This document shows, one piece after another, positions 1-17,205 of a DNA stretch of 17,788 nt. This stretch comes from a virus. Lineage: Duplodnaviria > Heunggongvirae > Uroviricota > Caudoviricetes. The notes beneath the pieces were generated by a model. It saw nothing but the letters and a program-made list of their open reading frames with translations. It ran no database searches and was not told the origin of the DNA. Position numbers and translations under genes: made by a program. Each line of letters starts with the position of its first letter. Position 1 is the stretch's first letter. The stretch lies in the IMG/VR virus record IMGVR_UViG_2870464427_000002; one strand, given 5' to 3'.

Positions 1-765
1 ATGCGCGAACGGGTATCGCAGCAGTTAAAAGAAATAGAACGTCTCTATGGCGTGAAAGTGCTGTACGCCTGCGAATCAGGCAGCCGCGGCTGGGGATTTG
101 CCTCGCCCGATAGCGACTACGATGTACGGTTTTTGTATGTCCATCCGCTGGAATGGTATCTGCGTGTAGAGTCACCGCGCGATGTTATCGAGCTGCCCAT
201 CGACGACGAATTAGATGTTTCCGGTTGGGAGTGGCGTAAGGCGCTGGGATTATTGAAAGGCGCGAATCCGACGCTGATAGAATGGCTGGATTCTCCGGTG
301 GTCTATCAACAAGATGAAGAAACGATAACGGCGCTTAAGGCAATGGTCCCAATGTGGTTTTCTTCGTTGCGTGCACGCTGGCATTACTATTCGATGGCGC
401 AGAAAAACTTCCGCGGCTATTTGCAGGGCGATGAAGTTCGACTGAAAAAATACTTTTACGTGCTGCGTCCGCTGCTGGCCGTACGCTGGGTTGAAGCGGG
501 AAAAGGCGTGCCGCCAATGCGCTTTTCCGAGTTACTGGCGGGAAGCGAGCTTGATGCGCCGTTACGCGTAGAAATAGACGAACTGCTGGAGCGTAAACAG
601 CGAGCGGGGGAGGCGGAATATGGTCCGCGTCGTCCTTTGTTACATGCGTTTATTCGCGCGGAGCTGGCGCGCGGGGAAACTCCACCAGTGTTACCGGATA
701 GCAGAGAAGGGGACGTTAAGGAACTGGATAGTTTACTGTACCAGACGGTAATGCGCCGGGCGTGA
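1..765 (+). CDS. Pol-beta-superfamily nucleotidyltransferase (COG3541 / RlaP-like); probable chromosomal flank
   Basis: 254-codon ORF with its ATG at window base 1. ESGSRGWGFASPDSDYD fits the G[SG]-x(9-13)-D-x-D minimal nucleotidyltransferase signature. It is convergent with the tail cluster, 15 nt from it, and its stop codon lies inside a terminator hairpin. Confidence 0.7.
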   Translation: MRERVSQQLKEIERLYGVKVLYACESGSRGWGFASPDSDYDVRFLYVHPLEWYLRVESPRDVIELPIDDELDVSGWEWRKALGLLKGANPTLIEWLDSPVVYQQDEETITALKAMVPMWFSSLRARWHYYSMAQKNFRGYLQGDEVRLKKYFYVLRPLLAVRWVEAGKGVPPMRFSELLAGSELDAPLRVEIDELLERKQRAGEAEYGPRRPLLHAFIRAELARGETPPVLPDSREGDVKELDSLLYQTVMRRA

Positions 766-781
766 TGCCCGGCGTTATTTT
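754..781 (+). terminator. Rho-independent terminator of the nucleotidyltransferase gene
   Basis: CGCCGGGC (754-761), loop GTGAT, GCCCGGCG (767-774), then TTATTTT. The 8-bp stem is perfect, and the T-tract is present only on the plus strand. Confidence 0.6.
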
Positions 782-1235
782 ACGGCTGATATTGCCAGCT
801 ACTGACTAAAGCGTACAAGTGGTTTGGAGAATAGCGCCAGCTTTCCTTCAGTTGCAGAAATTCAGCACAAAATTCACTGCAAAACAGGCGATCGCGCTGT
901 TCTTTATTACCGATAATAATTCCTAATGCTCCGCGCCAGTCATATTTTTTGCCATCATGTTTACGGAAAAAAGTTTCCACATCCTGAAGGCTGGCCTGGA
1001 GCGGCAGCATATCCCACTTATCCGCTGGCAATGGCATTATTTTTCCGCGTACACCGCGATCGCGCAGTGATGCGGAGTAACAAAGGTATCTCTTTTCACC
1101 ATGCTTAACGGCTAATTCACAGTGGGAATAACTACCGCGTGTGATTTTACGGGTAAGCCAGTCAGCCAGTCGGGCAATACCACGGTGCTCTGTTCGGCCC
1201 TTATAACAAGCGAGCCAGACAGTGGTTTTACTCAT
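780..1235 (-). CDS. Permuted papain-like (YiiX/YaeF, peptidase C92 / NlpC-P60 superfamily-like) protein; last gene of the tail operon
   Basis: 151-aa ORF whose ATG overlaps the upstream Tfa stop (ATGA at 1232-1235). His-before-Cys order: SYSHCEL at about residue 36-42, then GKKYDWRG...LFCSEFCAEF at about residue 95-126. This resembles the YSH ... G.PYD ... YCSE pattern of C92 amidases (recognised from memory). Confidence 0.6.
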   Translation of the reverse strand: MSKTTVWLACYKGRTEHRGIARLADWLTRKITRGSYSHCELAVKHGEKRYLCYSASLRDRGVRGKIMPLPADKWDMLPLQASLQDVETFFRKHDGKKYDWRGALGIIIGNKEQRDRLFCSEFCAEFLQLKESWRYSPNHLYALVSSWQYQP

Positions 1236-1939
1236 GGTTGCCAGCCTGTTGAATAATCGTAGTCGAGCACCGCCTGAATATCGTCCAGTGCTTCCACCGC
1301 CGCGATATGACGCTGGGCGTTTGCGAACAAGCGCATATCGTGATCCATGGTGACCGATTCAAACTGGGCAGCGATTTCGTTGGTTAACTCAATCAGACCA
1401 TTATTTTTAGTTTTCCACATTAACCCTGGCGGAATTTTTTTCTCCGCTCCCATTTTTGTGAGTGAAAGCTGTTGGATACGGCTATTTGTATCACTGTGGA
1501 AGTGATGGTTGTTGATGATGATGTAATCGGTTGTGATGGCATCGCGTTGATTTTTGATTGCAGAGTATTTCGCCTCTTTAGCATCGGTTATAGATGGTTG
1601 CCATTTTTCACCATCCCAACGTTCAAAAGAACCTGTCGGGGAAATGACTGTTACATTTTCAGGTAATTGGCCCAATTCTTGAATAATAAGCTGGCTACCA
1701 TCAACTTTGTTATAAACAGTTTGGCCTCGATGATCTTCAATAAGTCTCCATGTTTCATTCTCCCACACTGGAGTAAAACCAGGAGCCTTTTCGGGAGGTG
1801 AAATTAATGTGCAATAATTTGGCAAGCCTGTATTAGGTGCAATGTATGCATCAGACTCACCGATATATTCTTGGGAGTCTTGTGAAAAATTATATACAGT
1901 TAGTATTTGAGCTTCATCAGAAAAGGTAAAAGTATTCAT
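1232..1939 (-). CDS. Tail fibre assembly chaperone, chimeric (lambda Tfa-like N-domain plus DUF4376-like C-domain)
   Basis: 235 aa. The N-terminal part ([25 protein letters not shown] ... [34 protein letters not shown] ... ERWDGEKW) aligns by eye with lambda Tfa-type chaperones. The C-terminal half is a different module. ATGA overlap with the fibre stop. Confidence 0.85.
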
Positions 1940-3516
1940 GCTAGCCTCACAATATAGTTGAATGCGATATTTTTGACGGTGTTTTCGGTGCTGCCGGTAT
2001 TATTAATGGTTAGGGAGTGGTTATGGGAACCAAGTGCAATTGAATGCGAATGGGTGCCGAGCGCAACAGTGTGCGAATGGGAACCAATTGTAACACTATG
2101 AACGTGTGATGGAACATTAATTGCCAAAGATGATCCGGTACCAGGGCCATATGATGTCCAGTCGCCTTGGCCCTCTGGTGAAGATGTCCCTGTTCTTACT
2201 GTTGCAGTTGCCGAGCCTGAGCCAGATGAACTTGTTGTTTTATTTCCATGGTTAAATGATGATGCAGTTTTAGTCCCCAAGTCTGTGAGGGGTGTGGTTT
2301 TCGTCCCTAAATCAGTACTCGAAATACTGCCCGTATGGTTATGTGATTTAACTCCATCCAGTTCAGTAGATAATATAGCGCGCCCACTGGATGGTTTTCC
2401 TTTAATTATCCATCCGCGCATATCAGGAATAACACCAGATGGATATGCAATTGCCAGTTTGGGATAGGAGGTTTTATTAAATGTCTGACCTGTCATCAGA
2501 GCGTAGCCTGAAGGTACAGAATCAGATGGCCAGGGAATAGGCATCCCAACAGGACAGCTTTCCGCAGCAATAGCCTTATCCATCGCTGCCTTAACCGCGT
2601 TCGGCGTCGCAGCTTCCGTCGTACTGGTGCTGTTGGTCGCATTATTAAGTTTCACGACCCCTTTTTGTGTCAGCGTACCGTCGGGGATACCTGTTATTTG
2701 CCCCCAGGCATGGGTATGGCTGGACGGCGCCGCAGCAATAGCCTTGTCCATCGCTGCTTTAACCGCACTTGGCGTTGCAGCTTCCGTTGTACTGGTGCTA
2801 TTTGTTGTGTTGTTAAGTTTAACGACTCCTTTCTGCGTCAGTGTACCGTCAGGGATACCAGTAATCTGATTCCAGGCATGAGTATGACTGGTTGCGGCTT
2901 TGCTATTTGCCAGGTCATATGCCGTTTTTACCGCTTTTGGCGTGGCTGCTTTAGTCTCATCATCGCTATTAGTTGCATTACTGAGCTGCGTAAAACCTTT
3001 TTGTGTCAGCGTCGCATCAGGATGATTTCGTGATTGCTGATGTGTTTTCAACGCGTCATCGACATATTCCCTGGTTGCCACAACGACTGAAGGGTCGATC
3101 AAAAGCGTCACCGCGTCTGCATTGGTGACTTCCATGACCGCGCGTATAACGATTTGCTTACTGGCCCCCGCAGGTAATCGTGGCTTATAGGTTTCCGGGA
3201 ATTTACCAATAGCGACCAGCGTGCCGTCGGTATCCAGTAACCCAACTTCGCGTACATACCAGCCTCCGACTTGTTCGGGAATAATCGCTTCTGCGATAAC
3301 CCAGGCCGGATTATCTGGCGCAATTTTTAATGTATTGAGCTGACCACGCCAGACCTCATGGACTACTTTGGTCTGACTTTCTGTCGGTTCGATATATTTA
3401 CCATTACCGTCGCCAACTACCATAGTTTGCAGACGGATCTGTTTTTGCTCGGCCAGTGCTGAGGCAATTTTGGCTTTGCCTGCAGCAGTTAATATTGTAA
3501 AAAATTCACTTGCCAT
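1936..3516 (-). CDS. Tail fibre (P2 gpH / Mu S-like N-terminus; fibre repeats; tail-collar domain with HxH-rich tip)
   Basis: I place the true start at ATG 3516 ([18 protein letters not shown]...), 2 nt after the gpI-like stop. The tracked ORF extension to 3639 overlaps gpI. The N-terminus (TMVVGDGNG...HEVWRGQLN...[29 protein letters not shown]) is P2 H-like. There are three TLTQKG...ATNS...EAATP.AVK fibre repeats. The collar reads [23 protein letters not shown]...IPDMRGW. The C-terminus carries SHNH, SHVHS, SHSHT, THSHS and SHNHS motifs and ends [11 protein letters not shown]. Confidence 0.9.
2564..2899. repeat. In-frame tandem duplication, 2 x 168 bp (56 aa), inside the fibre gene
   Basis: GCAGCAATAGCCTT starts at 2564 and again at 2732. 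The units encode SHTHAW(N/G)[20 protein letters not shown](T/A)[12 protein letters not shown](S/N)[13 protein letters not shown] more diverged third copy follows, roughly 2900-3040. Confidence 0.85.
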
Positions 3517-3518
3517 TA

Positions 3519-4235
3519 TTACTCCGGATATACAGACATAATTTCGGTGCTCCAGTATCCTGTGCCGACCTTCATCGGTTGGGATTGTGTAAGGCGATCG
3601 GGTTGATAAGGTAGTAGTTGGATATATTCCTCCACACAATAACCCGTCGCTAAAAATATTCCTGATGACTGGCTGAGGCTTTCTGCAACAGGAGGCAATA
3701 CTGTAATGACTTCCCCTCCTTGCATGGCGCTGCCAATAACTGGTATTGGGCTTCGATTAATAAGCCAAATAACAATGCTTTCCAGCTTTGAACGAACATT
3801 TTTATATTCATGAATTAATGTGATAAGTGCATTGAATTCATCTTCATTTAATCCTTTTTCCTCTAGTGTAATATTTACCTTAAAAAAATAAGCCCTTCCC
3901 CCATATTCAAACCATTCTGAAATAGTTCCGGGTAAGGAAAGTATTTCCAGCACTCGCCGTACCGCCCAAATTGTTCCTTTATATTTATGCAGTTCAATGG
4001 CTTGTTTAATTAACTCGCGTTTCTCCCGCTCATCGGTGGTAAATAACCAACCTTCCAGCCCCTGAACGTGAAATTGTTCTGCAAGGGCTGGTAATGCCGA
4101 AGCATCAACCAGGTCGACCAGATAAACCATCAACGCCGTCAGATCGAGTTGGGCAAAACGCTCGGCGGCGATGTTTGCCAGAATCGAAAAACGCTCATCG
4201 CTGGCAAGCGGCGGCGGTGGCAGCAATTTATCCAT
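3519..4235 (-). CDS. Baseplate/tail protein, P2 gpI-like (Mu gp48 slot), with a C-terminal extension
   Basis: I prefer ATG 4235 ([27 protein letters not shown]..., GGAG 9 nt upstream, 8-nt overlap with the J stop) over the tracked TTG at 4250. The LLPP..L..ER start and the position after J match gpI. At 238 aa it is longer than P2 gpI. Confidence 0.8.
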
Positions 4236-7740: not shown

Positions 7741-8693
7741 TACCAGCTCCTGGTAATGGTTACGGCAGCAAGCTGGCTCACTGCGGGAGTGGTTTGTTGT
7801 ACCGTTGTACGTGCCTGCTCAACCAACGACGTGGCTTTATCGAACGTCGCTTCGGCGATGTCGCTGGTAATGTCGTCGAAAAGCGCCTGAGCATGGTCAA
7901 CCAGCGTACTGGCGTCATTGGCGCAGTCCCGGATACCTGGCATGTTACCCAGTAAAGCTTTAATCTGCGCCGACAACGCTTTTGGTAGGCCTGCCAGCGT
8001 TTGCAGATCCATTGGCTGTTTAAACAGGGTTTCGATGGCGTCGATTGTCTTTTTCAATGACGTAATTATCTTTTCACACTTTTCTTTTAACGCTTTGGCC
8101 TCTTTAATCATTGCTTTCACTTTTGCCACCGTTTTTTTAATATCTTCAATGGATTGTGTCAGTTCATCCAGCATCTCTTTGGCCTTACGCATACCTTCTT
8201 CAATGGCGTTTAATATCTGATCAAACCAGGACTCCACCTTGTCGGGAAAATCGCTCGCCTTTTCCTCGATGTTGGGCTCCTGGGTGGTAATCGCCGGAGG
8301 TAAAAGTGGATTTTTAGGATCGCCGGTGTACTCCTGGAGCGACATCGTTCCGTTTTGGGCAATCACATTGCCCCAGGGATCGGTGTGCTGGTGGGTGGCG
8401 GTTAGCTCCGTAATCACAAACCAGCCGCGATAATCGCCATTGCCAAATACCAGTGCCATCGCCTTGTGAGCAAGCATGGCTTCACGCAGTCGGTTCAGCT
8501 CTGTTGTGGGCTGGCAAAACTGGCTGTGCAGGGAAAATTCCAGCGCCAGCATATCCAGCTTATCGCCAATAAACTGCACGCCGGGTTTGCCTTCTATACG
8601 GGCATGTGTGGCGTAATCCACGCCCATTGTGCTTTTAAAGCCGTCCCAGAATGTGACAACCTTAAATTCAATCTCTCCTAAAACGGCATACAT
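7740..8693 (-). CDS. gpU-like tail protein fused to a ~190-aa coiled-coil extension (occupies the Mu N/gp43 slot)
   Basis: The first ~125 aa (MYAVLGEIEFKVV...THARIEGKPGVQFIGDKLDMLALEFSLH...GNGDYRGWFVITELTATH) resemble P2 gpU. The rest is a K/E-rich helical repeat (MRKAKEMLDELTQSIEDIKKTVAKVKAMIKEAKALKEKCEKIITSLKKTIDAIE...). TAATG overlap with the tape-measure stop. Confidence 0.75.
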   Translation of the reverse strand: MYAVLGEIEFKVVTFWDGFKSTMGVDYATHARIEGKPGVQFIGDKLDMLALEFSLHSQFCQPTTELNRLREAMLAHKAMALVFGNGDYRGWFVITELTATHQHTDPWGNVIAQNGTMSLQEYTGDPKNPLLPPAITTQEPNIEEKASDFPDKVESWFDQILNAIEEGMRKAKEMLDELTQSIEDIKKTVAKVKAMIKEAKALKEKCEKIITSLKKTIDAIETLFKQPMDLQTLAGLPKALSAQIKALLGNMPGIRDCANDASTLVDHAQALFDDITSDIAEATFDKATSLVEQARTTVQQTTPAVSQLAAVTITRSW

Positions 8694-11068
8694 TAGGCAT
8701 ACCCCCGGCGCTGCTGCTGCGCCATTACATCGTTAATCATTCTTTCCAGTTCGCGTTTACTCATCGTCAACACGTTCTGAATCTCTTTAGTGGTGTTTTG
8801 TCCGTTACCCTGCACGGTAATTTGTGGCGAAAAATTCACCTGAACTTTTCCTGAGGAACGGGAAGGTAGCGTCGCCGCTTTGGTTACGGATTTACCAGGT
8901 AAAGAGGCAGATACGGGTTTGGCGGCTGTATTTTTTGCCGCTGGCGCCGATGACGGCGTAGCCGTTTTGCCGGATGGCGCGAGTTGTTTGCCCACCGGCG
9001 GCGTTAAAATCGCACCGGCAACGCCTGGAACAACGGTCGCGGGGGAGACGGATGCGGTATTAGTCGTGCTTGTAATAGCTGTAGCCGATCCTTCTGTACT
9101 AATACCCATCGTGGTTTTTAGCCAGTCTGGGATGGCGTTTTTTACCTGATCAATAATGCCTTTCAGAGCGGGGAAGGCATTCATTATGCCGTCAACCAGA
9201 CTGCCCAGAAGATTGCTGCCGAACTCGCTAAAACTTGCAGGCATCTCGACACCAAACCAATTCATCACACTGGAAAAGGCGCTATAGAACAACTCCAGCG
9301 GTGACCAGTCGAGAATCAACCGACAAATTCCTGCAATGCCGCCGTCAAAGGCCGTGGTGATACGTTGCCAGATGGTCGAAAAGAACCTGGAGATAGGCTC
9401 CCAGTTGCGATAAATCAGATAAGCAGCGCCCGCAATCGCAGTGATGACCAGACCAATGGGATTCATCAGTAGCACCCGGCCTAGTGAGAGAACGGTCCGA
9501 CCAACCAGTTTCAATGTTCCAATCAGGCCACGACCAAGCAGTTGCGTTAGCCATTTTGCGCCGCCACCCAATGACTTAACCGCTGATAGCATCTTACTTG
9601 CCCCGCCTGTGAGCGCCAGACTTGCCTTGACTTTCAGGAAGATATCGACCAGACGAATAAACGGCGAGGTGATGAGGTTCGCGCCCAGCTTTAAAACATT
9701 CAGCGCACCGTTAAACAGCCAAATCGCCCCGACGATTTTCGCGATGTTTTGCACCAGTGTCGGGTGCTCACGTAGCCAGGCGCTGAACTGACGAATAACC
9801 GGCGTAAGGCTTTGTGCCAGCTCGCCAATCAGCGGCATTAATTGCAAGCCAATGCTGAGCCATAAATCATTTAACGCCAGCTGTAACGCTTTAGTCTGTT
9901 CAATGGGCGAGGCCATTTGCGCAGAAAAGTCGGCATCAATCAGATTCTTGCTGGTGGCTTGCATGGCAGAGGCTTTTAACTGGCGATATTCCTCCATATT
10001 CGCCAGCATAGGGGCCAGGAATTCCACTGTTTGCGCATCGCCGAACATTTCCCCCAGATTAAACTGCGTCACCATCGATTGCAGCGCATTGCTGCGGGCA
10101 GATAAATCTTCGATCTGCATGGTGCGTTTGAAGGTGTCGAGGATCGCCGGATTCATCTTCTCAAGCTGCATTTGCACGATATGAGTCATGGCTTCGCTAA
10201 CACCCATACCGTTTTGCTGATGCTCAAGCAGAGAGCCTTGCAGATCAACGCCCTGGCTGACGAACCAGTAATCGGTTTTTTTCGAAAAGGTGGTTTGCAG
10301 AAAGTGGTCGAAATTCTCCGCCGCCGCACTGGCGCTGGCCCCGTTTTTCATGGCGATCTGCATGGTGGCGGTCAGTTCAGCCATACCTTCCAGACCCTGA
10401 GCGCCGGTTTTACCTGCAAATTTCTCTATCCACTGCGTTTGTTCAGCAATGGCAGGCCCACCGCTTTTGCTAATGCCGTACATCATGTTTTGCGCGGCGT
10501 GGAAATTTTCCGGGGCAATATTCAGTCGATCATGGGTTGCGAGCGCGGCATTCGCCCATGTTTCAGCACTTTCGCGCGTGGCGGTGGCAGCTTTGGCGAT
10601 CTCCGGCATATAACGGTTGAGATCCTGTATCGACGACAAATTGCCTTCGATCAGCGTTTGGGCTGCGTTCTGTAAGGTGGTCTGCTGCTGGTTAAAATCC
10701 ATGCTCCAGTCGCGCAGATTAAGGCTGAGCGTCTCGCGGGTTGTAGCATTCATCCCACCTTTGGTCGCCATATTGACCATGTTGTCCTGAAACTCATACG
10801 GCAACTTCCAGTCGGGGGCTTCAACATTGAATACTTTGCTAAATTGCCCGGCAAATGTTTGGGTTTTCTCCATCAGATTAGCGCGGCTGCGGCTATTTTC
10901 CTCCAGGCGGAGAGCGGAATCGGCAAGCTGCTGCGTTAGTTTGATAACTGTCGCCTGCTGAGTAGAGAGAGTTAACAATGTTCTGGCGTTGAGTGAGCCG
11001 TAACGGGCTATTGCCTGCGTCAACGTCTCATTACGCGCCTGAAGCTGGGTAATAATATCGTTGGCCAA
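8693..11068 (-). CDS. Tail tape measure protein
   Basis: 791 aa. Helical N-terminal half, a cluster of hydrophobic segments at about residue 400-640, and an Ala/Pro/Ser/Thr-rich linker near the C-terminus. It sits after the chaperone gene. The only available start is TTG 11068, because a stop lies 4 codons upstream, and the SD (AGAGAA) is weak. Confidence 0.88.
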   Translation of the reverse strand: MANDIITQLQARNETLTQAIARYGSLNARTLLTLSTQQATVIKLTQQLADSALRLEENSRSRANLMEKTQTFAGQFSKVFNVEAPDWKLPYEFQDNMVNMATKGGMNATTRETLSLNLRDWSMDFNQQQTTLQNAAQTLIEGNLSSIQDLNRYMPEIAKAATATRESAETWANAALATHDRLNIAPENFHAAQNMMYGISKSGGPAIAEQTQWIEKFAGKTGAQGLEGMAELTATMQIAMKNGASASAAAENFDHFLQTTFSKKTDYWFVSQGVDLQGSLLEHQQNGMGVSEAMTHIVQMQLEKMNPAILDTFKRTMQIEDLSARSNALQSMVTQFNLGEMFGDAQTVEFLAPMLANMEEYRQLKASAMQATSKNLIDADFSAQMASPIEQTKALQLALNDLWLSIGLQLMPLIGELAQSLTPVIRQFSAWLREHPTLVQNIAKIVGAIWLFNGALNVLKLGANLITSPFIRLVDIFLKVKASLALTGGASKMLSAVKSLGGGAKWLTQLLGRGLIGTLKLVGRTVLSLGRVLLMNPIGLVITAIAGAAYLIYRNWEPISRFFSTIWQRITTAFDGGIAGICRLILDWSPLELFYSAFSSVMNWFGVEMPASFSEFGSNLLGSLVDGIMNAFPALKGIIDQVKNAIPDWLKTTMGISTEGSATAITSTTNTASVSPATVVPGVAGAILTPPVGKQLAPSGKTATPSSAPAAKNTAAKPVSASLPGKSVTKAATLPSRSSGKVQVNFSPQITVQGNGQNTTKEIQNVLTMSKRELERMINDVMAQQQRRGYA

Positions 11069-11625: not shown

Positions 11626-12150
11626 TTAGCCACCGATGTTATTGCGATAGGTACTTAATTGATCCACACCATTAACCCGGAAAATATTGGCCATATAATC
11701 AAGTTCAAGCAGCGTTTCACCATCAACTACTTGTTTAATATAAGTGCAACCAAAGGCGCTGCTGAATTCCGGGTTTTCATTCTGTTTAAATGTGCCCAGT
11801 GGATTCTTTTTAAACATCACGGTTAAATGTGTCACTAGCGCTAATTGATTCGCTTTCCCCTGGGAGTTATAGCAATCAATACTGGAGCGGCACTGTAATG
11901 CAACCGCCTGCCACGGGTTTGCCGTTTTACGCATTACGTCCTGATAGAAGGAGTTCCATTTAATTTCGCCCTCCAGTTTATCGAAACCCGCCGGGAGTTC
12001 GATTTTACCCACCATGCCCAGTGCTTTATGCTCCTGCATAATTAAACTGACATCCGGCAATTTAATTTCGGTTGCACGACCTAAAAGGTTATTACCATCG
12101 AGATAAATATTGGCGTTGGTAATACGGTTAATTTGAATTTTTCCAGCCAT
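11626..12150 (-). CDS. Tail tube protein (P2 FII-like)
   Basis: 174 aa directly after the sheath gene (TAATG overlap). ITNANIYLDGNNLLGRATEIKLPDV...GMVGKIELPAGFDKLEGEIKWNSF matches the contractile-tail tube family. Confidence 0.9.
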   Translation of the reverse strand: MAGKIQINRITNANIYLDGNNLLGRATEIKLPDVSLIMQEHKALGMVGKIELPAGFDKLEGEIKWNSFYQDVMRKTANPWQAVALQCRSSIDCYNSQGKANQLALVTHLTVMFKKNPLGTFKQNENPEFSSAFGCTYIKQVVDGETLLELDYMANIFRVNGVDQLSTYRNNIGG

Positions 12151-13573
12151 TAGCTATTGCTCTCCAGAGAGACTAAATATTCAGAAGTAATTTCAGTTTC
12201 AAACGTCAGACGTTCCAGCGGCGGCGGCGGGGTGAATTTATAGCTCAGCAATAAATGCCCAGCGCTGAGTTCAGTCGGTGAATTTCGCGCCGGATCGTAC
12301 CAGCATTCAAAGCCAAGCAGTGCGCCGTCGGCAATCAGCTTACGGCCCCAGGTATTTACCGATTCGGTCAGGGCATCAATCAGCGCCTGATTAATCGGCA
12401 TATCAATATACTGCTGACTGAAATAACGGATTGACTCATTAATTACATCGCCTGTCCGGCGGACGTTTTCAAAGTTACGCATATGGGTCACGGTAGGCCA
12501 CGCTGCAGTGCGGTTGCCCCACAAGCGCAGACCAGAGCCGTAACTATTGAAAATAGTGGTAATGCCGTTTTCGTTTAGCTGATTCACTTCGCTTTGTGGA
12601 TCATCAATCATTGCGGAAAGCGAACGTTCAATACCGGTAATACCCTGAATTTCTTGGTTTGAGTTGCTCCACCAGAAACCTTTTTCGAGGTCTACTTTGG
12701 CACGTAGCCCGGCAGCGCGCGAAGAGAGCGGTTCGAGAACTTCCTGGTTAGTGATGCCATCGTAAACTTTGACGTGTGGGTAACATAAACGCGCACGATC
12801 AGAGCTGGTGTTGAAGTTGATAGCCCCTTGCGAACCGCGTCCTGCCAATACCTGCTGGAATGTCGTCCCAATCGGGGCATCAATGTAGGTAATCGCACCA
12901 AGTTTTTCCGCTTGTGCAATCAGCTCTGTAGTTACTGATTTTTGCGTACAGAACACGGGAGCAAGCAGGATTTTGGCGTAGAAACCATACAGGTTATAGG
13001 TGTCCTGTAGCAGTTTCATCCCCGTGCGGTCGCCTGCGGTATTTACGGTACCGATAATATCGGCTGCGGTGACCTTTGTAGGGTCGCACCAGGAATAATA
13101 GGCACAAACTTTCGCACCAGGAGGAATGTCGGCTCCTTTACGGGTAATTATGCCTGTTTGTTCATCTACGCTAAATGCTGCGGTGTTAAAGGTTGATGAA
13201 TTTGATGAAGAGGGCTTTAGTACCACGTTACGCACATTGCGGTGAGCGAGCTTCGCCTGGTTGTTAGCATCAAAAGTGATACTCTCATTGCTGATGTTGG
13301 AGCCATGTTTTGCCGGATCCAGCACGTTAATCACCACCACCGTACCGGCACCGTGGTCATAAATTGCCTTCAGTGCCTGTGGGATCGTAAAGTTAGCCTG
13401 AGTCGAGCCAAACTGCGCAGCATCGCTTTCAGAAAGGCATAATGTTGGTTTATTTACCGGACCGCAGGGGCTGTACCGATTAAAGCGATGACGGCGGATT
13501 TTACCGCTTTAACCGGACGCGGGCCGGTTTCAATTTCAATAGTTTCTACACCGTGCAGATAATTAGCTGCCAT
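12150..13573 (-). pseudogene. Tail sheath gene (P2 FI / Mu L family) broken by a 1-nt frameshift
   Basis: ATG 13573 opens MAANYLHGVETIEIETGPRPVKAVKSAVIALIGTAPAVR*, with the stop at 13454-13456. The sheath sequence continues in the -1 frame as PCGPVNKPTLCLSESDAAQFG...VVVINVLDP down to 12150. One extra C in the C4 run (plus-strand GGGG, 13467-13470) restores a 474-aa ORF. Confidence 0.8.
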
Positions 13574-14356: not shown

Positions 14357-14671
14357 TCAATAACTGCCACGTTGTAACAGCTCGATTTTGCTATATAAGG
14401 CATCCAGCTTCGCTTCTAATACTGCTTGCCCACGAAGATAATCTTCTCTGCGGACATAATGCAGCGGAAGCTCGGCACGAAATTCGAGAAATTCTCTTTC
14501 CAGTTTCGACCAACTTGTTTCTGATTCCCGGCGCGCGTTTTCCAGAGATTCAAAACGCTCATTAAGTCGTTTTTCAATTTGTGCTAACAGCAGTTTTCCG
14601 GCAGCAAACATTAATCCAACGAAGGAAAGCATAAGGGAGATCACTTCCCAAAAATCGATACTGAGTTTCAT
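14357..14671 (-). CDS. N-terminal TM plus coiled-coil lysis accessory protein (i-spanin-like or Mu gp25/DUF2730-like)
   Basis: 104 aa. One TM segment (WEVISLMLSFVGLMFAAGKLLL) followed by heptad-like helices (IEKRLNERFESLENARRESE...LEAKLDALYSKIELL). RBS is AGAGGGG. It is the third gene of the lysis cassette. Confidence 0.55.
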   Translation of the reverse strand: MKLSIDFWEVISLMLSFVGLMFAAGKLLLAQIEKRLNERFESLENARRESETSWSKLEREFLEFRAELPLHYVRREDYLRGQAVLEAKLDALYSKIELLQRGSY

Positions 14672-15889: not shown

Positions 15890-15919
15890 GGGTCTTCCCT
15901 TGTTGTGGTGGCTGAAGGC
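15890..15919. repeat. IS left inverted repeat
   Basis: GGGTCTTCCCTTGTTGTGGTGGCTGAAGGC, compared with the reverse complement of the right end, GGGTCTTCCCCGATCATGGTGGGAAGGC. The first 10 nt are identical and the TGGTGG and GAAGGC blocks are shared. Confidence 0.8.
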
Positions 15920-15956
15920 ATGATAATGGTGTATTTAATCGCCAGAGGTCACCGCC

Positions 15957-17177
15957 ATGGACGAAAAGTCCCTCTACGCTCATATTCTCAACCTGTCCGA
16001 TCCGTGGCAGGTAAAGTCCCTTTCTCTCGATGAAAATGCCGGTTCTGTTACTGTCACTATTGAGATCGCTGAAAACACCCGGCTAGCCTGTCCGACCTGC
16101 GGTAAATCCTGTTCTGTTCACGATCACCGTCATCGTAAATGGCGCCATCTTGATACCTGCCAGTTCACCACTATTGTTGAAGCCGATGTTCCACGAATTA
16201 TGTGTCCGGAGCATGGCTGCCTGACGTTGCCTGTTCCGTGGGCTGGCCCCGGAAGCCGGTATACGTTGCTATTCGAATCGTTCGTTCTCTCATGGCTGAA
16301 AATCAGCACCGTTGATGCTGTCAGGAAGCAACTTAAGCTCAGTTGGAATGCGGTTGACGGCATTATGACCCGGGCAGTTAAGCGAGGTCTTGCCCGGATA
16401 AAAAAGCCATTATCCGCCCGTCATATGAATGTGGATGAGGTCGCCTTTAAAAAAGGACATCGTTACATAACGGTGATCTCCGATCGCGATGGTCGGGCGC
16501 TGGCCTTAACGGATGATCGCGGCACAGAGAGTCTTGCCGGCTATCTTCGCACGCTCACTGATGGGCAGTTGCTGGCTATCAAAACGCTCTCAATGGACAT
16601 GAACGCGGGCTATATAAGAGCAGCGCGTATCCACTTACCCAGTGCGGTTGAGAAAATCGCCTTTGACCGCTTCCATGTGGCGAAGCAACTGGGCGAGGTA
16701 GTTGATAAAACCCGTCAGAATGAACATCCGCACCTCCCTGTTGAAAGCCGACACCAGGCAAAAGGAACCCGCTTCCTGTGGCAGTACAGCGATAAGTGGA
16801 TGACCGAATCCCGGCAGGAAAAGCTGATGTGGCTGCGTGCACAGATGAAGCTGACGAGCCAGTGCTGGGCGCTGAAAGAGCTGGCAAAGGATATCTGGAA
16901 CAGGCCATGGAGCGAGGAAAGACGGAGTGACTGGCAGAGATGGTTGGCGCTGGCGGCTAACAGTGACGTTCCCATGATGAAAAATGCCGCGAAAACGATA
17001 GGAAAAAGGCTGTACGGGATCCTGAATGCGATGCGACACAGTGTCTCAAACGGAAATGCGGAGGCACTTAACAGCAAGATCAGGCTGCTGAGGATAAAAG
17101 CCAGGGGATACCGAAACCGGGAGCGCTTTAAACTGGGGGTGATGTTCCACTACGGAAAGCTGAATATGGCGTTCTGA
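15957..17177 (+). CDS. ISL3-family transposase
   Basis: 406 aa. N-terminal zinc-finger (CPTCGKSCSVHDHRHRKWRHLD), a DDE_Tnp_ISL3-type core (MNVDEVAFKKGHRYITVISD) and the C-terminal GNAEALNSKIRLLRIKARGYRNRERF. The stop lies just inside the right inverted repeat. Confidence 0.9.
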   Translation: MDEKSLYAHILNLSDPWQVKSLSLDENAGSVTVTIEIAENTRLACPTCGKSCSVHDHRHRKWRHLDTCQFTTIVEADVPRIMCPEHGCLTLPVPWAGPGSRYTLLFESFVLSWLKISTVDAVRKQLKLSWNAVDGIMTRAVKRGLARIKKPLSARHMNVDEVAFKKGHRYITVISDRDGRALALTDDRGTESLAGYLRTLTDGQLLAIKTLSMDMNAGYIRAARIHLPSAVEKIAFDRFHVAKQLGEVVDKTRQNEHPHLPVESRHQAKGTRFLWQYSDKWMTESRQEKLMWLRAQMKLTSQCWALKELAKDIWNRPWSEERRSDWQRWLALAANSDVPMMKNAAKTIGKRLYGILNAMRHSVSNGNAEALNSKIRLLRIKARGYRNRERFKLGVMFHYGKLNMAF

Positions 17178-17205
17178 GCCTTCCCACCATGATCGGGGAA
17201 GACCC
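17178..17205. repeat. IS right inverted repeat
   Basis: GCCTTCCCACCATGATCGGGGAAGACCC, the reverse-complement partner of 15890-15919. Confidence 0.8.

Follow-up and report, generated by a model that had tools for sequence, protein, structure and literature searches.

A divergent YiiX-like permuted NlpC/P60 protein encoded directly behind the tail-fibre assembly gene tfa in Escherichia coli and in phages

To our knowledge, all characterised permuted NlpC/P60 enzymes work with a Cys–His dyad, form an acyl-thioester intermediate and use lipid-type substrates. The LRAT and PLAAT enzymes are acyltransferases or phospholipases. YiiX has been crystallised with a fatty acid in its hydrophobic S1 pocket and is characterised only as a fatty-acid binder (PMC3142127), Tox-Act1 and TseH are phospholipases (PMC12994826), and LnsA participates in lipoprotein N-acylation (PMC7387801). 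Here we analysed a 17,788-nucleotide stretch of DNA (IMG/VR record IMGVR_UViG_2870464427_000002, called the window here), which is a chromosomal, headless phage-tail cluster of Escherichia coli, and in it the gene that follows the gene of the tail-fibre assembly protein Tfa. This gene, called PPNE here, is a widespread putative accessory of the fibre module and lies directly behind Tfa in hundreds of phages and prophages. The gene and the codons of its predicted active site are located as follows.

780–1235, minus strand: PPNE gene; 151 amino acids, ATG start; stand-alone permuted NlpC/P60 (YiiX-like) predicted cysteine enzyme
1122–1124, minus strand: codon of His38, the predicted catalytic histidine, in the invariant motif Y36-S37-H38-C39-E40
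942–944, minus strand: codon of Tyr98, invariant, candidate NlpC/P60 signature (oxyanion) tyrosine, 21 residues ahead of Cys119
879–881, minus strand: codon of Cys119, invariant, the predicted nucleophile, in the motif F118-C119-S120-E121

YiiX of E. coli (PDB 2if6) and BcPPNE from Bacillus cereus (PDB 3kw0), which belong to Pfam PF05708 and MEROPS C92, have the same His...Tyr...Cys order as the PPNE gene product. Three motifs are common to them: a strand bears 'YSH', 'D-G-V-R' follows the strand after it, and a helix opens with 'CSE'. Each consists of a single domain, with about 150–190 residues. However, the identity of the two to the window protein is only 19–21%, and the window protein is shorter (151 against 180–214 residues). 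Its family also differs in having Ala or Ser in place of a conserved Glu, an invariant H-C-E triplet of its own and a sub-threshold Pfam score, and it is found in phage tail-fibre operons, whereas the genes of the other two are chromosomal housekeeping or lipoprotein genes.

The other described systems are less similar. TseH (PDB 6v98) and Tox-Act1 are type VI secretion system effectors and permuted NlpC/P60 phospholipases that have a weapon or conflict gene context in common with the window locus; the activity of Tox-Act1 needs both His and Cys (PMC12994826). They form a separate clade of other sequence families and are secreted toxins that act in the periplasm and have immunity proteins, whereas the window locus has no evident immunity-like partner and no export signal. 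LnsA of Staphylococcus aureus is a YiiX-like permuted enzyme that needs a partner protein (LnsB) and has a lipid-modified substrate (PMC7387801), but it has a signal peptide and is extracytoplasmic, and its partner is a membrane protein of the CPBP family, not a fibre chaperone. LRAT, PLAAT (H-RAS-like suppressor) and the picornavirus 2A H-NC proteins resemble PPNE in the Cys–His acyl-thioester chemistry on lipids that is proposed for it below. Their similarity is much weaker, they come from eukaryotes or RNA viruses, and neither the NCEHF motif around the Cys nor the C-terminal membrane anchor of this group was found in the window protein. SuMu gp51 and the family phrog_1128 are of the same family as the window protein, and SuMu gp51 also follows Tfa with an overlap.

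Fold and conserved residues of PPNE

The PPNE protein has no match in Pfam (E ≤ 1) or NCBIfam. In PHROGs, it matched phrog_1128 over its full length (8.1e-59), a family named 'enoyl-CoA hydratase/carnithine racemase-like' and placed in the category 'moron, auxiliary metabolic gene and host takeover'. We rejected the enoyl-CoA hydratase (crotonase) name: there is no crotonase match in Pfam or NCBIfam, the protein has about 150 residues against about 250, and the fold is papain-like. The label appears to have spread from HAPS_0909 / SuMu gp51.

The alignment-based AlphaFold2 model (predicted local distance difference test, 84.4; predicted template modelling score, 0.82) has a papain-like α/β core that can be superposed on the solved permuted members. 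Further matches were TseH, Aichivirus 2A, the MARTX RID domain, PLAAT4 and PPPDE, all of which are circularly permuted NlpC/P60 proteins. A profile of the family matches 3kw0 (E 7.6e-5), and the alignment pairs 'YSHCE' with 'FSHTG', 'DGGVR' with 'DDGVR' and 'FCSEF' with 'ICSEF' (PPNE and BcPPNE, respectively). Matches in BFVD include a phage protein named 'permuted papain-like amidase, C92'. The family is bridged to Pfam C92 by a distant phage relative (L088; hhalign probability 97.9, Pfam E 2e-4), which is already annotated as 'permuted papain-like amidase'.

The circular permutation can be read directly from the protein. In the translation, the His of SYSHCEL (residues 35–41) stands ahead of the Cys of LFCSEFC (residues 117–123), and G..YDW..A (residues 95–103) lies between them. 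In the model, His38 opens a strand (residues 38–44) and Cys119 opens a helix (residues 119–126), as in the solved members (PMC3142127), so that an invariant strand His precedes an invariant helix-start Cys. From its position in the sequence, Tyr98 is a candidate structural equivalent of the signature tyrosine; the signature Tyr/Cys pairs are Tyr115/Cys128 in YiiX and Tyr127/Cys154 in BcPPNE (PMC3142127). The conserved aromatic and aliphatic residues near Tyr98 (F, W100, L104, F118) are compatible with a hydrophobic S1 pocket, but are no proof of one. The features of canonical NlpC/P60 cell-wall hydrolases (Cys before His, an export signal and/or wall-binding domains) were not found, and the protein has neither an N-terminal hydrophobic, signal-like segment nor a membrane segment.

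The family is large. A single search gave 89 homologues from Enterobacteriaceae, Pasteurellaceae and others, and an exhaustive profile search, in which cluster representatives at 50% identity were counted, gave 4,406 at E ≤ 1e-3 and 1,920 at E ≤ 1e-10, with Neisseriaceae and Moraxellaceae also represented. Nearly all of these representatives are stand-alone, full-length proteins of 135–180 residues. In an alignment of 49 sequences with 34–81% identity, 17 columns are invariant: A9, Y36, S37, H38, C39, E40, S56, D59, G61, V62, R63, K65, W74, Y98, C119, S120 and P137. These include D59, G61, V62 and R63 of the DGGVR-type motif. The ratio of nonsynonymous to synonymous substitution rates (dN/dS) among enterobacterial orthologues is 0.07–0.09, and PPNE is a real gene under purifying selection. 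Natural fusions of Tfa and PPNE were not present among the top 150 representatives. Three longer representatives (P0109, P0224 and P0135) are extended at the N-terminus by low-complexity sequence and look as if their starts were mis-called. In another homologue (P0200, 227 residues), the C-terminus is extended by a lipobox-like 'LALAGC' and a Pro-rich segment; the extension resembles a spanin-type lipoprotein and suggests read-through into, or fusion with, a downstream lysis gene in its contig.

The preliminary description of the window had noted the His, the Cys and the motif between them, and had taken their order for that of a permuted enzyme, a reading to be checked by profile searches and structure prediction. 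The residues stand in the translation as it had described, His38 and Cys119 are invariant in the alignment, and the 3kw0 match, the confident model and its papain-like fold speak for the assignment. Within the YiiX-like permuted branch, PPNE fits best as a divergent subfamily carried by phages, and not as a standard C92 member.

Linkage to Tfa and its C-terminal domain

The features of the window that concern the linkage are the following.

1232–1939, minus strand: Tfa, 235 amino acids; Pfam DUF4376 (1.9e-14, residues 119–227) and Caudo_TAP (3.1e-7, residues 71–134); PHROG tail fibre / Tfa families
1259–1585, minus strand: DUF4376 C-terminal domain of Tfa, of the type ending DYDYSxGW; co-varies and co-occurs with the PPNE gene
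1232–1235, minus strand: ATGA stop/start overlap of tfa and the PPNE gene; the plus-strand bases read tcat

The domains and the position of the 235-residue protein identify it as Tfa. In its N-terminal part, it resembles lambda Tfa (Caudo_TAP) and has matches to the Tfa proteins of lambda, P2-like phages and others; its C-terminal part is DUF4376, and a fibre open reading frame of 567 amino acids (1936–3639) directly precedes the gene. The PPNE gene and tfa share 4 nucleotides, in which the ATG of the former lies on the TGA of the latter. The promoter scan found no σ70-like promoter in 600–2100, including the inside of tfa.

We compared the gene context in the best 80 of 189 confirmed genome loci, 78 of which have an upstream open reading frame on the same strand. 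The stop of this frame overlaps the PPNE start in 62 of the 78 (by 4 nucleotides in 26 loci, 8 in 21 and 11 in 9), and a further 10 have a gap of no more than 20 nucleotides. The upstream frame clusters with the window Tfa in 74 of the 78, with Pfam and PHROG matches to DUF4376, Caudo_TAP or tail-fibre assembly. The downstream neighbour is variable and includes a D12 methylase, the sheath gene, RlaP, a C5 methylase and others. As the downstream gene changes while the upstream Tfa stays, Tfa is the constant neighbour. PPNE also follows the fibre and Tfa genes in 25 phage records, for example SuMu (gp51), Pasteurella Pm86 (ORF70), Moraxella Mcat, Acidovorax AP1 and Pseudomonas pAN, and it persists beside Tfa across myo-, sipho- and tailocin backgrounds. 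Phage Mu gave no match among the PPNE homologues in phage records.

The linkage also holds in the reverse direction. For the Tfa type of the window, PPNE was found directly downstream in all 78 testable IMG/VR loci and in 15 of 15 phage records. For a second Tfa type ('RMRKYEL'), it was found in 73 of 79 loci; six are cleanly without PPNE and a few have remnants. The six clean absences indicate that the gene is conserved but dispensable. Altogether, at least three C-terminal types of Tfa occur ahead of PPNE. This number and the constancy of PPNE despite exchange of the N-domain led us to reject a tie of the gene to one fibre type. The converse generalisation, that every DUF4376 chaperone has PPNE, was also rejected: no PPNE has been reported for Mu U or for the chaperones of Campylobacter and Alteromonas, all of them DUF4376 proteins (PMC7882524, PMC10579305).

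Within Tfa, the association is with the C-terminal domain. Over 93 Tfa/PPNE pairs, PPNE identity correlates with that of the Tfa C-domain with r = 0.80 and with that of the N-domain with r = 0.51, and the N-domains are unrelated in 85 of the 216 locus pairs in which PPNE is at least 85% identical. In the related clusters L089–L120, Tfa C-domains of 86–90% identity are joined to unrelated N-domains (the window against L092, L094 and L095, for example), which places a recombination breakpoint in the middle of tfa. The tracking of the C-domain by PPNE agrees with published work, in which the Tfa N-domain is variable and binds the fibre and the C-domain is conserved (North et al. 2019, in the summary given by PMC7882524). 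The exchangeable host-range cassette ends inside tfa, and the Tfa C-domain and PPNE form a constant 3' block.

The overlap of the PPNE start with the Tfa stop as ATGA had been pointed out before, and a stop/start overlap is kept in most related loci. The preliminary description had further proposed that co-occurrence with particular fibre or Tfa types be tabulated, and had named a random occurrence of homologues as evidence against its view. The distribution is far from random (74/78 upstream frames are Tfa homologues; 78/78 and 73/79 in reverse), and PPNE follows the C-domain types of Tfa while the N-domain is swapped.

The tail cluster of Escherichia coli

On the far side of PPNE, the window contains two further features.

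753–775, no strand assigned: GC-rich hairpin from the terminator scan, a likely terminator between the convergent RlaP and PPNE genes, with a T-run on the plus strand
1–765, plus strand: RlaP-family nucleotidyltransferase gene (Pfam 3.7e-96)

The convergent RlaP-family gene ends 14 nucleotides past the PPNE stop, and PPNE is the last gene of the cluster, as had been described. Across 15.9 kb, the window is 99.99% identical to NZ_CP029747. The cluster order is mor, holin, lytic transglycosylase, small lipoprotein, gp37-like, sheath, tube, tape measure, baseplate, gpI, fibre, Tfa and PPNE, with rluF/yjbD/slipin/RlaP next to one end of the cluster and lysC next to the other. PPNE is present in 202 of 5,426 complete E. 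coli genomes, as a single chromosomal copy, and is called 'hypothetical protein' in every record listed. A paper on an E. coli ST131 'tailocin' concerns a different, P2-like intact prophage.

An RlaP-family gene also adjoins the end of the cluster in Superficieibacter and Phytobacter (L006, L007, L008 and L020; 4 of the 76 downstream genes scanned). This recurrence across genera suggests that the whole tail cluster may occupy a conserved chromosomal site in enterobacterial genera. One of these loci, L006 (JAEZCC010000043.1), is a 6.7-kb contig labelled 'MAG: Bacillota bacterium'. Its Tfa/PPNE pair has 97% protein identity to that of E. coli, and mis-binning of an enterobacterial contig is the most likely explanation.

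The lysis cassette of the window consists of the holin, the transglycosylase and a lipoprotein; the gene of the last (14357–14671, minus strand) is the third of the cassette and matches phrog_462 'lipoprotein' (6.3e-34). The cluster shows no recognisable pair of i-spanin and o-spanin. This cassette neither favours nor excludes a lysis role for PPNE.

We noted several lesions in the cluster. An insertion sequence of the ISL3 family (15890–17205, 1,316 bp) occupies the intergenic region that separates the holin gene from the divergently oriented gene of the mor activator. The element encodes a 406-residue transposase (DDE_Tnp_ISL3, 9.9e-56), has the inverted ends GGGTCTTCCC...GGGAAGACCC and is flanked by an 8-bp target duplication, ATGTGTAT; NZ_CP029747 is without it. 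The element may separate the late operon from its control region. The sheath gene (12150–13573) has a one-base deletion at 13471 relative to NZ_CP029747, approximately 100 nucleotides into the gene, and the longest sheath frame has 396 residues in the window against 475 annotated in NZ_CP029747. If the frameshift is real, this strain has a defective tail cluster; otherwise the deletion is an error of sequencing. The tape-measure gene (8693–11068) has a single mismatch at 9544, where the window has G and NZ_CP029747 has A; the window has an uninterrupted frame of 791 codons, whereas the NZ_CP029747 record shows a pseudogene with an internal stop. With the sheath lesion in the window and the tape-measure stop in NZ_CP029747, the two strains carry different lesions of the cluster.

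Proposed activity and alternatives

By analogy with the permuted members, we infer with about even confidence that PPNE is an active, soluble Cys–His acyl-thioester hydrolase or transferase, which uses a lipid-type acyl substrate and is made late together with Tfa. In the predicted active site, Cys119 at the helix start and His38 at the strand start would form the dyad, Tyr98 would likely serve as the oxyanion or P1-carbonyl residue, and the reaction would pass through a covalent acyl-thioester intermediate. As the permuted members act on lipid-type substrates, the proposed substrate is a fatty-acyl ester or amide (phospholipid, lipoprotein N-terminus or lipid-A-type acyl chain) and not a peptidoglycan peptide. 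PPNE would be translated from the late tail-fibre transcript by coupling to Tfa and would be produced only alongside tails and fibres. This late co-expression is suggested by the overlapping starts (4 nucleotides in the window; 62/78 loci) together with the lack of a promoter-like site in 600–2100. Because there is no export signal, three places of action can be envisaged: the cytoplasm or inner leaflet of the producer, the envelope after opening by the holin, or a passenger position on the conserved Tfa C-domain. The role would be that of a conserved, dispensable accessory of the Tfa gene and not of a core tail part.

Several points weigh against this proposal. Stop/start overlaps are frequent between unrelated phage genes, and coupling alone is no proof of a common function. 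The Ralstonia jumbo phages carry PPNE alone, away from tail genes. A Foldseek search of the PDB gave no significant match. The window protein does not reach the gathering threshold of Pfam PF05708 Peptidase_C92 (27 bits); only 2 of the 49 homologues match C92, and weakly (best 0.0053), and the distant phage relative scores 21.9 bits, which is also below 27. The canonical third triad residue, a Glu on the next strand at +15 from the His (Glu64 in both YiiX and BcPPNE), is paired in the profile alignment with residue 55; the window protein has Ala there, and the family has Ala or Ser throughout. Judged from the sequence, catalysis would have to be carried by the dyad or by family-specific residues (E40, S56, D59). 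PPPDE1 and LRAT likewise lack the canonical third residue (PMC3142127). The YiiX/C92-type assignment made in the preliminary description is supported by the fold and by the order and invariance of His and Cys, with the qualification that the score stays below the Pfam C92 threshold and the canonical Glu is lacking.

In order of falling confidence, the alternatives to an acyl hydrolase or transferase made with Tfa are a partner of fibre and Tfa, a cargo or conversion gene, a second wall lysin and an inactive hitch-hiker. PPNE might bind the DUF4376 C-domain and act on the fibre–Tfa complex, either by trimming the chaperone cap or setting it free, or by adding acyl groups to the fibre or Tfa or removing them. 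It might also ride to the fibre tip with retained Tfa. The near-obligate adjacency to Tfa genes of the same C-domain (78/78, 73/79, 15/15) would be expected from such a partner, as would the conserved stop/start overlap and the tracking of the C-domain (r = 0.80) while 85 of the 216 pairs with near-identical PPNE have exchanged N-domains. TfaMu-type chaperones can remain on the fibre, according to the summary in PMC7882524, and transient chaperone caps have been described (PMC10579305). However, linkage alone predicts co-variation of adjacent segments, DUF4376 chaperones such as Mu U function without PPNE (PMC7882524, PMC10579305), six loci cleanly lack it, and the top 150 representatives include no fusion with Tfa; we regard a partner function as possible but doubtful. 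The SuMu virion proteomics paper does not mention gp51 and is uninformative here. It is distinctly unlikely that Tfa kept at the fibre tip recruits PPNE through its DUF4376 C-domain and so equips phages or tailocins with a fibre-end enzyme that cleaves or transfers acyl groups of lipids or lipopolysaccharide (LPS). If true, an activity that modifies the outer membrane would be carried on the virion, a kind for which tail fibres have no described precedent, and it might help irreversible binding or penetration, or free particles from debris. A cargo (moron) at the end of the fibre operon, travelling with the conserved 3' flank of tfa and altering the lysogen envelope by superinfection exclusion, receptor masking or self-protection against its own tail particles, would account for the positions of PPNE (Tfa–PPNE–com/methylase in Mu-like phages, between G and the sheath gene in P2-like phages), which are classic for cargo, and for its PHROG category and dispensability. 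This, too, is unlikely, as there is no promoter-like site upstream within tfa, and a start overlapping the tfa stop in most loci points to late and not to lysogen expression. The protein has no signal peptide or membrane segment by which to reach LPS or the outer membrane and no match to the PADLOC defence families (E ≤ 0.01), and beside Tfa in myo-, sipho- and tailocin backgrounds it is far more constant than typical cargo. The preliminary description had offered self-protection against the cell's own tailocin. As a general function this is unlikely: the gene occurs in complete phages (SuMu, Pm86, Moraxella Mcat, AP1, pAN and the Ralstonia jumbo phages) and is therefore not a tailocin-specific device.

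The two remaining alternatives concern the cell wall and the absence of any activity. Membership of the NlpC/P60 superfamily would suit a peptidoglycan amidase or endopeptidase that is released through the holin and aids lysis. The phages AP1 and pAN have the PPNE gene just ahead of the lysis cassette, and P0200 runs into its lipoprotein-like, spanin-like tail. Such a lysin is nonetheless improbable, because the hydrophobic S1 pockets of the permuted members were judged unsuited to peptides (PMC3142127), and because the window, as well as Mu-like and P2-like phages, has its lysis cassette elsewhere; the neighbour that stays constant is Tfa and not a lysis gene. Least credible of all is a decaying or purely structural remnant that is kept by its position in the conserved recombination flank of the fibre cassette. 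Truncated or missing PPNE copies do exist, and the tail cluster of the window is damaged by the insertion sequence and the sheath frameshift. The low dN/dS (0.07–0.09), the invariance of the predicted catalytic His, Cys and Tyr over about 34–97% identity and the 4,406 representative clusters, nearly all full length at 135–180 residues, make such a remnant very hard to sustain.

The fold class of PPNE is known, and distant phage members are already correctly named. The large subfamily, its misannotation, the loss of the Glu together with the invariant H-C-E triplet and the tight pairing with the Tfa C-domain are absent from the searched literature, in which nothing relevant was found that links permuted NlpC/P60 proteins or 'enoyl-CoA hydratase' to tail-fibre assembly genes. 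When phages and tailocins are to be retargeted, it is their tail-fibre modules that are re-engineered, and exchanged fibres are routinely co-expressed with Tfa chaperones. One large class of Tfa is accompanied by a conserved gene for a predicted enzyme, which has been overlooked as 'hypothetical' or, wrongly, as 'enoyl-CoA hydratase'. Should PPNE be simple cargo, the result would still be a corrected annotation and a clear marker of the 3' boundary of the fibre cassette. If it acts on envelope lipids or on the fibre–Tfa complex, it would add a new accessory step in fibre biogenesis, adsorption or release, and the poorly understood bacterial YiiX-like enzymes would gain a tractable genetic context.

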